Shown here in pieces: positions 7,794-11,496 of a stretch of 22,019 bases of DNA (position 1 is its first letter; each line of letters begins with the position of its first letter). Under the pieces are notes generated by a model that was not told the DNA's origin, did not search any database, and saw only the letters and a program-made list of their open reading frames with translations. The position numbers and the translations under genes were made by a program. Origin of the DNA: a virus. Its lineage: Duplodnaviria > Heunggongvirae > Uroviricota > Caudoviricetes. The DNA lies in IMG/VR virus record IMGVR_UViG_2585427746_000008, one strand, 5' to 3'.

Positions 7794-8327
7794 ATGATAG
7801 ATGCAAAAGTGCTTGAAGGGGTTAAAAACTGGCTGAGCATTTACGGGCGTCTGACCTGCGGCGTTCTGGCTCAAAGAATGAATATGCCGCCATCCTCGAT
7901 GGTCTATTTTCTGCGTGATGCGGTTGATGCCGGTGTGCTGACAGAATGTAACGGTTTTTATGATATTCCGCGTCCCCGCCCGGTACAGCCGGTTCGTCGC
8001 AAATGCCGCCAGGAGTCTGTGGCTGATGATGTTCAGTGGTGCAGCTTCAGAAAATCCCTGCCGTGGGTTGAAGGGCATGATATTCCGTCGATGGCGTGGG
8101 AATTTGCGCAGGGCGTTCTGACCTGTGAAACCGTTTATGTGGTGGCTGAAGTTGATGAGCAGGCAATGAAAGAAGGTGTGCCCCAGTTTGTGATGGCGTA
8201 TATCGACATTCGCCTGGGGACCATTATCTGCGGTTTAAGCGGCTGGAATATCACCGAACATGTTCTGCGTTACCTGATTGTTGACCGGACGGCAGCGCCT
8301 GCCGGGATATCTGCGGAGGTGGCGTAA
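7794..8327 (+). CDS. hypothetical protein
   Basis: 177-aa ORF with GGAGG RBS, starting 4 nt after the upstream stop. Confidence 0.55.
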   Translation: MIDAKVLEGVKNWLSIYGRLTCGVLAQRMNMPPSSMVYFLRDAVDAGVLTECNGFYDIPRPRPVQPVRRKCRQESVADDVQWCSFRKSLPWVEGHDIPSMAWEFAQGVLTCETVYVVAEVDEQAMKEGVPQFVMAYIDIRLGTIICGLSGWNITEHVLRYLIVDRTAAPAGISAEVA

Positions 8328-8842
8328 TGTTCTTTAAAACATCGAACCCTTCCGCGCTGGCTGCGTGGCAAAAATATCAGCAGGACTGCCAGCAAGTTAA
8401 GGATGAGGCAAAACGCCTTGAGGCCGTGCTGAATGTTGAGTGCCGGTCGGTATTTGTATCCGGTATCAGCGGTTTTTGTTTTAAGGGGCTGCGTTTTACG
8501 AATGACAAATATCCTTTTCATCGTGATTTATGGCGAAAACCGACTGCGTCGAATGGCTGGAGCTGCACGCCGCGCACATCGCGCATTCCCAAAGCCCTGC
8601 GCACTGCCTCTGACGAACTGAACAGTCTGTGGCGTGAATATTCGCCCGTCACGTATGCCAGAACCGATGCCCTGTTGTTCTGGCTGGGCATTGATTTCTC
8701 AGCAATCCTGTATGGCCCTGTGGAGTGGTTCTGCGTTGACGATGTGATTTATCTTCAGTGCGGTGTAAAACCCGCAAATCAGAAAATGACCGAAATTCTG
8801 TCTGATGAGTTTTATGCTGCTGAAAAGCGAGTCAGGGGGTGA
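8327..8842 (+). CDS. hypothetical protein
   Basis: 171-aa ORF; its ATG overlaps the upstream TAA (GTAATG) and is preceded by GGAGGTG. Confidence 0.55.
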   Translation: MFFKTSNPSALAAWQKYQQDCQQVKDEAKRLEAVLNVECRSVFVSGISGFCFKGLRFTNDKYPFHRDLWRKPTASNGWSCTPRTSRIPKALRTASDELNSLWREYSPVTYARTDALLFWLGIDFSAILYGPVEWFCVDDVIYLQCGVKPANQKMTEILSDEFYAAEKRVRG

Positions 8843-8845
8843 TGC

Positions 8846-9397
8846 ATGATGAAATTACAACCCATGGGGCGAAAAGGTCGTGCACCTGCTCATGTCCGCC
8901 CGTGGACACCTGAAGAAGATGCGCTGCTGATTGCGCTTTATTCCTCCACCCCGGTTAAGGATATTGCCGCCAGAATAAAAAGAAGTGTCTGGGCCGTATA
9001 TAACCGGACTGGCGTATTGCGCAGTACATACCCGGAGTTGCTGAAATATAAACGACCGCGATTTACACCTGATGAAGATAAATTTATCCGAAAAAATGCC
9101 CGGACAATGACCTGCCAGCAAATGGGGGATTATCTCGGACGTAATAAAGACTCTGTCAGGTGCCGCGCAGGAATGATTGGTGCCGGATTAACAAAGTGCG
9201 GTGAGTTACGCCCCGGCACACGTATATCTGATGAGGATGTTCGTCTTATACGTGCACTACGGGATTCCGATTACCCTCGCCGTCTGTCATTCCGGGAAAT
9301 TGGCGAAAAGTTTGGCATATCTGAACATTCTGCTCACGCTGTTTATTACCGTCGACGGACCGCCGAGGACGCTGTATTACGGGAGTTAACGCCATGA
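8846..9397 (+). CDS. putative DNA-binding protein with three tandem helix-turn-helix-like repeats (Myb/SANT-like)
   Basis: Three spaced repeats: WTPEEDALLIALY...IAARIKRSVWAVYNR, FTPDEDKFIRKN...MGDYLGRNKDSVRCR, ISDEDVRLIRALR...IGEKFGISEHSAHAVYYRR. Strong AGGGGGTGA RBS. Confidence 0.5.
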   Translation: MMKLQPMGRKGRAPAHVRPWTPEEDALLIALYSSTPVKDIAARIKRSVWAVYNRTGVLRSTYPELLKYKRPRFTPDEDKFIRKNARTMTCQQMGDYLGRNKDSVRCRAGMIGAGLTKCGELRPGTRISDEDVRLIRALRDSDYPRRLSFREIGEKFGISEHSAHAVYYRRRTAEDAVLRELTP

Positions 9398-9579
9398 TAA
9401 AGAGACTTGTATTTTTCGCAATTATCGTTCCAGTGTGGGGGACTGGTTTTATATTTGCGATTACAGGAAACCTGTCCATTATGCCTGACATTTGGTTCTT
9501 TATCAGGATGTCGCTCTTCCTGTTTATTATGGATTTTCTCATCGGTATATACATTCGTATTTCCGGGAGGCGTAAATGA
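9394..9579 (+). CDS. small hydrophobic membrane protein (61 aa)
   Basis: Almost entirely hydrophobic (LVFFAIIVPVWGTGFIFAITG and FFIRMSLFLFIMDFLIGIYI), consistent with two transmembrane helices. Lies in a low-GC segment; the start overlaps the upstream stop. Confidence 0.45.
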   Translation: MIKRLVFFAIIVPVWGTGFIFAITGNLSIMPDIWFFIRMSLFLFIMDFLIGIYIRISGRRK

Positions 9580-9950: not shown

Positions 9951-10140
9951 TCTACCCGCTGGATGGGCGCGGCCATTGATGGCTAAGAAGCATCATTTTT
10001 TTAAAACAGGTGAAAATATCAGTATATGTGGGCGGTGGTTATATCTGGCTCATAATCGCGAGCCGGATACATTTGAAAGCCCTGATGACTGTGCCGAATG
10101 CCGCAGAAGACTGAATAAGGAGAAAGATAATGGACAGTAG
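9943..10140 (+). CDS. small Cys-containing protein, possible zinc-ribbon (65 aa)
   Basis: GGAGG RBS upstream. A Cys in ...SICGRW... and a later CAEC pair, about 20 residues apart, suggest a metal-binding knuckle. Confidence 0.4.
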   Translation: MNSLPAGWARPLMAKKHHFFKTGENISICGRWLYLAHNREPDTFESPDDCAECRRRLNKEKDNGQ

Positions 10141-10426
10141 TTCGCAGTTGTTCTGGTGTTTATATATCACATCGTTTTTCGGTGCATTCGTCATTACACG
10201 ATGGCTGTGCCGGAAAGTTATCAGTATTTTTCATAAAAAATACCTGATTGGGCTGGCGGCGGCTTCTCTGATTAATGCACTTGCCAGATATCATAAGGGG
10301 GAATACTACTCAAGAATAAAAACTGTTGATGGTTTTAATATTTTTGTGATTCCTCCGGAGTATCGGGTTCAGCTCGATCGGGAAAATAAAATCTATCATA
10401 TCAGCAGGAGTGTTGATACAGCATGA
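10130..10426 (+). CDS. small membrane-anchored protein (98 aa)
   Basis: AAGGAGA RBS upstream. N-terminal hydrophobic helix LFWCLYITSFFGAFVITRWL. Low-GC sequence. Confidence 0.5.
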   Translation: MDSSSQLFWCLYITSFFGAFVITRWLCRKVISIFHKKYLIGLAAASLINALARYHKGEYYSRIKTVDGFNIFVIPPEYRVQLDRENKIYHISRSVDTA

Positions 10427-10936: not shown

Positions 10937-10968
10937 AAATCCCGCCACAGCGCGGGATTTTTATTTTA
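10937..10968 (+). terminator. Rho-independent terminator ending the early operon
   Basis: 9-bp stem AAATCCCGC / GCGGGATTT (10937-10945 and 10952-10960) with a 6-nt loop, followed by TTATTTT. Confidence 0.7.
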
Positions 10969-11002
10969 AACTTGCCCTGTGTAATGATGACCGGAGGCGG
11001 GT

Positions 11003-11425
11003 ATGGCTGAAACACAGATGAGCATGTTTGGTGACAGCGAACAGCTGCACGCGCTGATTGACCGTCTGGATGATATTCCTGATGATGAGCTGAAAAAGAA
11101 CTGGCCCGGCACGCTGCGGGACCTGGTTGATGTGATCAGTGCTGAACTGCACCGTCAGGGGATTGAACCTGCTCAGGCGGGAATGCTTGCCCGTAAGGTT
11201 GCAGCCGCACAGGCCGGGTACATGGGCGGGCGTGGTTATTATCTCCCGGTCGGTGAATCCCTTTTCACCGAACTGCGCAATAATGAAATTTTTTCCCGCT
11301 GGAGCCAGGGCGAAAAAATTGAAACCCTGCGCCGCCACTACCAGATGTCAGAGACGCAGATTTACTCCGTTATCCGCAACCAGCGTCGCCTGCATCAGGA
11401 ACGCACGCAGCCACGGCTTTTCTGA
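11003..11425 (+). CDS. Mor/C-family transcriptional activator
   Basis: 140 aa with a C-terminal HTH (ETLRRHYQMSETQIYSVIRNQRRL) resembling Mu Mor/C, including the conserved YLP..G motif (GRGYYLPVGESL). Located after the early terminator and before the lysis genes; GGAGG RBS. Confidence 0.75.
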   Translation: MAETQMSMFGDSEQLHALIDRLDDIPDDELKKNWPGTLRDLVDVISAELHRQGIEPAQAGMLARKVAAAQAGYMGGRGYYLPVGESLFTELRNNEIFSRWSQGEKIETLRRHYQMSETQIYSVIRNQRRLHQERTQPRLF

Positions 11426-11496
11426 TATTCCGCAAATCCTGCCCACTTTTTCCCACGGTTACGCTGACTCAGAGAACACCATGAGACAGCGTAACA

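Follow-up and report, generated by a model that had tools for sequence, protein, structure and literature searches.

A 22,019-nucleotide stretch of Caudoviricetes DNA (IMG/VR record IMGVR_UViG_2585427746_000008), referred to below as the window, carries a gene whose 183-aa product had appeared, in an initial annotation made from the letters alone, to contain three tandem Myb/SANT- or GcrA-like helix-turn-helix (HTH) modules. We asked whether these modules are real, to which family the protein belongs and what such a protein might do in the early region of a Mu-type phage. Judged by sequence comparison, the tri-HTH protein appears to be a real, fairly ordinary and uncharacterised DNA-binding accessory protein of a known phage family.

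The tri-HTH gene is part of the early operon of a Mu-like prophage

The open reading frame at 8846..9397 (+) is a real gene by the ORF list and its translation. It coincides exactly with the RefSeq CDS WP_000977064.1 of E. coli AST198, which has an identical product and is named by PGAP "SANT/Myb-like DNA-binding domain-containing protein". We annotate it as the CDS of a D5-like/Myb-like tri-HTH protein of 183 aa and 21 kDa (8846..9397, +, stop included) on the basis of the ORF list, WP_000977064.1, the PHROG 323 match described below and dN/dS. Direct reading of the sequence places a Shine–Dalgarno-like AGGGGG (8834..8839, +) 6–7 nt 5′ of the ATG. The Mu gp12-like gene (8327..8842, +), which always precedes the tri-HTH gene in Mu-like prophages, has its stop at 8840–8842; the tri-HTH gene starts 3 nt later and is thus tightly packed in the early operon. 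At its other end, the stop codon overlaps, as ATGA, the start of a 61-aa hydrophobic ORF (9394..9579, +), and this overlap suggests that translation of the small ORF may be coupled to that of the tri-HTH gene. The 61-aa product itself is very hydrophobic, with two predicted membrane-spanning stretches, and has no PHROG or Pfam match. An intrinsic-terminator-like hairpin after gemA (10937..10960, +) marks the end of the early operon that contains the tri-HTH gene. Compared with three collinear E. coli prophages, the tri-HTH gene has a dN/dS of 0.05–0.25, the mark of purifying selection, and it is therefore functional.

The surrounding region is a Mu-like prophage. The E. coli AST198 chromosome is 100% identical to the window over 1.6 kb around the tri-HTH gene, and sequence related to those 1.6 kb occurs in 232 of 5,426 complete E. 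coli genomes. In our phage collection, similar DNA was found only as an 'inserted Mu-like phage' in two Stx-phage records. The gene order runs from the repressor through a ner-like gene, transposase, MuB-like ATPase, small ORFs, gam, gp11-like and gp12-like genes to the tri-HTH gene, which is followed by four small ORFs, gemA, a Mor/C-family activator, lysozyme and the head genes. A PADLOC scan of the tri-HTH gene and seven neighbours gave no defence-protein match.

The region 10937–11425 holds the only Mor/C-family activator gene that we found there, with 40% identity to Mu C and 28% to Mu Mor. It lies directly before the lysozyme gene, and on its 5′ side the strong hairpin at 10937–10960, kept across the E. 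coli and Salmonella relatives, is accompanied by a region resembling the Mu t9.2/Pm arrangement. A 19–21-nt direct repeat, ACGGyTTTTmTGATATTCCGC, occurs in the gp11-like gene (7951–7971), within the Mor/C-like gene (11061–11079) and at the end of the latter (11413–11433), with two of the copies 90% identical; it may well be a product of chance. Farther downstream, the 120-nt gap between the minor head protein and virion morphogenesis genes contains a tRNA-like element (18888–18967, −), annotated by PGAP as 'tRNA-OTHER'. ARAGORN and a default Rfam scan reported nothing for this element. A permissive Rfam scan matched it to the tRNA model at 31 bits against a cut-off of 29; the anticodon region is oversized, and the predicted fold combines an acceptor-like stem of 10 bp with a good T-arm.

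Three repeats form three predicted helical bundles

The repeat motifs start at residue 20 (WTPEED), residue 73 (FTPDED) and residue 127 (ISDED), with spacings of 53 and 54 aa; the third is degenerate and lacks the W/F-T-P opening. When the repeats of this one protein were compared as single sequences, the first and second alone scored above shuffles (p about 0.008); the pairs of repeats 1 and 3 and of repeats 2 and 3 did not. Comparison of family profiles built from 30 homologues related repeat 1 to repeat 2 with a probability of 98.9% (P=2e-17), repeat 2 to repeat 3 with 92% (P=6e-7) and repeat 1 to repeat 3 with 87% (P=4e-6), and a hidden Markov model built on repeat 1 detected repeat 2 of the window protein at E=3e-8. 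AlphaFold2 predicted three separate three-helix bundles (residues 22–61, 75–110 and 129–169) and a C-terminal helix, with a mean pLDDT of 81.5 and a pTM of 0.49. From the profile statistics and the three predicted bundles, we conclude that the three repeats are real and that chance is excluded, the third being a more distant HTH.

Repeat 1 (residues 19–62; 8900..9031, +) is a Myb/SANT-type three-helix module opening with WTPEED, with helices at residues 22–32, 37–44 and 48–61. The Myb-like module of repeat 2 (residues 72–112; 9059..9181, +) opens with FTPDED, has helices at residues 75–84, 90–97 and 101–110, and aligns with repeat 1 of Mu gp9. Repeat 3 (residues 126–170; 9221..9355, +; ISDEDVRLI...FREIGEKFGIS) is a diverged HTH of sigma-r4, HTH_23 or AsnC-HTH type with helices at residues 129–140, 149–156 and 160–169, the first two of which are the most conserved part of the family. 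After repeat 3 comes a conserved C-terminal helix (residues 173–181, TAEDAVLRE; 9362..9388, +), then LxP. The modules are preceded by an N-terminal arm (residues 1–18, MMKLQPMGRKGRAPAHVR; 8846..8899, +) that is basic, conserved across the family and predicted to be disordered, with pLDDT below 50 for residues 1–15. Its family consensus is L-x-P-M-G-x-P-G-x-C-P-A-H, and its column entropy is as low as that of the structural helices. We infer that it may serve as an arm contacting the DNA minor groove or a partner. A zinc site formed by the conserved Cys and His residues of CPAH and KCGD was considered and rejected: the first Cys is replaced by Ala in the window protein, and the second is variable among family members.

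Foldseek searches of the whole predicted chain against the PDB gave only weak matches (E of at least 0.1), as expected for small domains on flexible linkers; with the pTM of 0.49, structural similarity is established in the model at the level of single domains only. Among the top structural matches were the SANT domains of CoREST and Bdp1, and SANT-type modules can mediate protein–protein instead of DNA contacts. The modules might bind the phage repressor or a host protein and not DNA, making the product an anti-repressor, as had initially been proposed, or a purely protein-binding factor with the conserved disordered N-terminal peptide as its docking motif. We consider this very improbable. 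The protein is strongly charged (pI 10.1, net charge +15), all sequence-profile matches are to DNA-binding HTH families, and the characterised relative, T5 D5, is a DNA-binding protein. For an anti-repressor in particular we found no support, and expression of the early operon starts only once repression has already been lifted.

Profile matches place the modules among Myb-like and sigma-region-4-like HTH domains

Against Pfam Myb_DNA-binding (PF00249/PF13921), the window protein scored 23.6 bits (E=5.8e-5), just short of the 24.4-bit cut-off, and 18 of the 30 family members matched this model at E≤0.01, the best at 1e-7. The family profile also matched the R2R3 region of c-Myb in register with both repeats (E=2e-4), and the initial reading of three tandem Myb/SANT- or GcrA-like modules holds up on these grounds; it also agrees with the existing RefSeq and PHROG annotation. 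Each module is predicted to be a three-helix bundle with the recognition helix third, as in Myb/SANT domains. The three Trp about 19 residues apart that characterise each Myb repeat are not present. Relative to eukaryotic R2R3 Myb (c-Myb, B-Myb, WER) and SANT proteins, the window protein keeps the first Trp only: W20 is the sole invariant Trp, the second and third Trp positions of repeat 1 are V/K and T, repeat 2 begins with F73, and repeat 3 has no Trp at the Myb Trp positions. Its third module is not Myb-like, and its setting is a bacterial virus.

All Pfam matches over the 30 members were to HTH families. Sigma70_r4 matched 20 of the 30 and HTH_23 matched 15. For the window protein itself, the sigma-70 region 4 models (Sigma70_r4 and r4_2) gave E=0.13–0.16, below threshold, and among the relatives they matched 17–20 of 30 at E≤0.01, through repeats 2 and 3. 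A search for sigma-factor identity found no other sigma regions in the protein, and the sole NCBIfam match, to sigma70-ECF, scored 13.6 bits against a cut-off of 42.9. The GcrA model (PF07750) had no match in the window protein at E≤10 and does not figure in the list of 25 families compiled for the 30 members. The family profile matched Cbp1, a three-HTH CRISPR-repeat binder, at E=7e-4. Cbp1 (Sulfolobus CRISPR-repeat DNA-binding protein, PDB 2lvs) is the product of an archaeal chromosomal gene, and its sequence similarity is marginal.

Many homologues are labelled 'AsnC family protein' by NCBI, which would make the window protein a ligand-responsive regulator of the AsnC/Lrp family. Repeat 3 indeed has weak Pfam matches to HTH_AsnC-type, as it does to HTH_10, HTH_38 and sigma-70 region 4, the first of these covering residues 131–164 at 19.7 bits, under the 27-bit cut-off. 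The match is limited to the generic HTH. The 183 residues contain no ligand-binding RAM (AsnC_trans_reg) domain, and the structure prediction shows helices only, without a beta-alpha-beta domain. An AsnC/Lrp identity is refuted by the missing effector domain that defines that family, and we find the database name hardly credible as a description of this protein.

The protein belongs with T5 D5 and Mu gp9 in PHROG 323

The window protein falls in PHROG 323, 'transcriptional regulator, D5-like' (E=2.5e-53, 182.7 bits; residues 2–182 on profile positions 80–256). The same profile finds T5 D5 at E=1.2e-71 and Mu gp9 at 5e-29. Alignment with hhalign related the family to T5 D5 over all three repeats (97.3%, E=2e-11) and to Mu gp9 over residues 65–168, that is, repeats 2 and 3 (98.3%, E=1e-14).

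T5 D5 (T5.118, 255 aa), the prototype of PHROG 323, has the three repeats in the same order as the window protein, and the WTPE and FTPDE motifs line up between the two; it too is an early phage gene product annotated as DNA-binding and encoded next to replication genes. Its RefSeq note reads 'DNA-binding protein; required for DNA replication and late transcription; also involved in shutoff'. The two proteins are only remotely similar, at about 24% identity. The conserved LKPMGxPG arm is missing from D5, which carries an additional domain of ~70 aa at its N terminus and a tail rich in Lys and Ala. T5 is also a virulent phage, whereas the tri-HTH gene lies in the accessory region of temperate phages. 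The low identity and the extra D5 domain make a transfer of D5 function uncertain. McCorquodale et al. 1979 is the primary reference for D5. A paper on DRT4 that deals with a DNA-binding protein of T5 was set aside, since it concerns ORF55 and not D5. Literature searches on the WP accession, on Myb-like HTH proteins of Mu-like and other phages, on Mu gp9 and on the semi-essential region returned nothing specific to the window protein or its close relatives.

Mu gp9 (E8, Mup09, 99 aa) is likewise a member of PHROG 323 and is encoded in the early 'semi-essential' region of Mu. It has two repeats, not three, and lacks both the N-terminal arm and the C-terminal helix. Its gene is just upstream of gam, whereas the window gene follows gp12, sitting between gp12 and a gp13-like ORF, where Mu has no gene; a gp9-type paralogue was not found in the window prophage. 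With a two-repeat homologue in Mu itself, a Myb-like HTH protein is not unusual in the Mu early region, contrary to the initial impression, and the three-repeat form keeps to one place in the gene order of many Mu-like prophages from E. coli and Salmonella.

The gene is an accessory module of temperate phages

A word-indexed search found relatives in enterobacteria only, mostly under the name 'AsnC family protein'. An exhaustive HMMER search recovered 9,813 proteins at E≤1e-3, including about 25 clusters of full-length 170–195 aa proteins that share the LKPMGxPGxCPAH arm, the KCGD linker, the F-x-E-I-x-x-K-F helix and the C-terminal TAxDA..RE.LP. Many uncharacterised phage proteins in BFVD have the same tandem-HTH build. 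A search for related loci over one-genome-per-species representatives yielded no confirmed relative. Also among the relatives are thousands of proteins of 300–1100 aa (for example, metagenomic P0023, P0025, P0027 and P0031) with 4–12 tandem ~48-aa repeats homologous to repeats 1 and 2, of consensus WTxEEDxxLxxxYxxxxxxEIAxxLGRSxxAVxxRAxxLGL; in P0023 the array is fused to a helicase domain. Such long arrays of Myb/GcrA-like modules look unstudied.

We surveyed the genomic context of 46 IMG/VR loci and 10 other contigs. In the Mu-like prophages of E. coli and Salmonella, the tri-HTH gene invariably follows gp11 and gp12, in that order, and precedes gemA and Mor. In all eight P2-like loci, the tri-HTH gene lies directly 3′ of a Dam-type methylase gene and upstream of replication gene A, with a PAPS-reductase-like gene between the tri-HTH gene and gene A in four of them. 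This early block of Dam methylase, D5-like tri-HTH, optional PAPS-reductase-like gene and gene A was seen in Salmonella and Klebsiella P2-like prophages (L002–L004, L006, L059–L062). Other copies sit in the early regions of other temperate phages. The tri-HTH gene is an accessory module exchanged among Mu-like, P2-like and other temperate phages.

The tri-HTH product could be a GcrA-like epigenetic reader that prefers Dam-methylated (GATC) DNA and/or RNA polymerase, linking methylation to phage expression or replication in the manner of Caulobacter GcrA and CcrM. We judge this improbable. The GcrA DNA-binding domain (Caulobacter; PDB 5yiu) is one module, against three in the window protein, and the GcrA likeness is confined to the fold of that domain: repeat 3 is followed by a single 9-residue helix and no C-terminal sigma70-interacting domain as in GcrA. 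In the E. coli prophage matching the window, a check for methyltransferases returned only com/mom. The constant pairing of P2-like copies with a phage Dam methylase is the ground for a more elaborate proposal, which we regard as quite improbable: the protein would be the reader half of a phage epigenetic module, a triple-GcrA-DBD-like sensor of GATC methylation that times the switch from the early to the replication or late phase, the step for which T5 needs D5, and the Mu-like copy would read host Dam methylation.

The tri-HTH gene is always found in an early operon with replication genes, and in P2-like prophages at most one gene separates it from gpA, which lies downstream. It might accordingly encode a DNA-targeting accessory subunit that marks or bends the DNA of origins or ends, serving gpA in P2-like phages and MuA/MuB in Mu-like ones, with no role in transcription. 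In line with such a subunit, T5 D5 is annotated as necessary for DNA replication, and the predicted fold resembles the bipartite HTH DNA-binding domains of the Tc3, mariner and IstA transposases. Against it, the replication mechanisms of Mu-like and P2-like phages are unrelated, as are their cis sites; the gene is absent from Mu, which replicates normally; and the window contains no repeated candidate sites. P2, which likewise replicates normally, is not known to carry a tri-HTH gene. Taken together, we hold the accessory-subunit role to be unlikely.

Alleles differ most in the predicted recognition helices

Two alleles, with about 96% and about 73% protein identity, occur in near-identical E. 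coli Mu-like backbones in which the neighbours are 91–95% identical. Their differences fall at 18–19 of 34 positions in the third helices versus 28–31 of 149 positions elsewhere (Fisher p about 1e-4), and across the family no element varies more than helix 3 of the repeats. This concentration in the predicted recognition helices hints at sequence specificity; mere surface exposure could explain the faster change of helix 3 equally well.

The allele replacement is confined to the tri-HTH gene (window versus L011; IMG/VR L036–L056), with 78% nucleotide identity and a dS of 0.66, whereas the upstream flank from gam to the gp12-like gene is 93–95% identical with a dS of 0.11–0.23. From one prophage to another, the distance between the tri-HTH gene and gemA differs by more than 1 kb. 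The 98-aa ORF at 10130–10426 is also highly divergent (52% aa).

No candidate binding site came to light. A search for repeated DNA within the window found only short matches consistent with chance. In the region upstream of the Mor/C-like gene, the terminator/dyad and promoter showed no covariation with the tri-HTH allele; the −10 region follows the Mor allele, and the hairpin is kept regardless.

Discussion

Our analysis points to an early, duplex-DNA-binding protein of the D5/gp9 family that acts on transcription and/or replication, a picture that we consider somewhat probable as a whole. Its parts differ in strength. We infer that the window protein binds duplex DNA and regard this as highly probable. 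A regulatory role, argued by analogy with D5, is conceivable and we put it forward tentatively, and the sequence specificity, targets and regulatory outcome are speculative.

A mechanism can be outlined on this basis. The product would be a monomeric, strongly basic protein (pI about 10) consisting of a flexible N-terminal arm and three independently folded HTH modules joined by short linkers, two of them Myb/SANT-like and the third a diverged HTH akin to sigma region 4 or HTH_23. Each module would insert its third helix into the major groove, in the manner of c-Myb R2R3, Tc3 transposase, the GcrA DNA-binding domain and Cbp1, such that a single molecule could hold about three short sites in succession along one face of the DNA, with additional contacts made by the N-terminal arm. 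T5 D5 is said, in papers of 1979–83, to bind duplex DNA cooperatively. The protein would presumably be expressed from the early promoter together with the transposition and replication genes, consistent with the location of tri-HTH genes beside replication genes in early operons of both Mu-like and P2-like prophages. Acting on the DNA template, it may modulate transcription and/or replication during lytic development, much as T5 D5 is annotated as acting in replication, late transcription and early shut-off.

Phage early regions commonly encode DNA-binding proteins with several HTH modules, and another one will not surprise specialists. The assignment nevertheless corrects a common misannotation, the 'AsnC family protein' label carried by thousands of enterobacterial prophage proteins, and it connects both Mu gp9 and an uncharacterised accessory gene widespread in Mu-like and P2-like prophages with T5 D5, the only studied member of the family. 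The alleles that differ in their recognition helices amount to a natural experiment on DNA-binding specificity. If the protein controls the timing of transcription or replication, it could explain part of the unexplored 'semi-essential' early region of Mu and would show how bacterial viruses use Myb-type modules.
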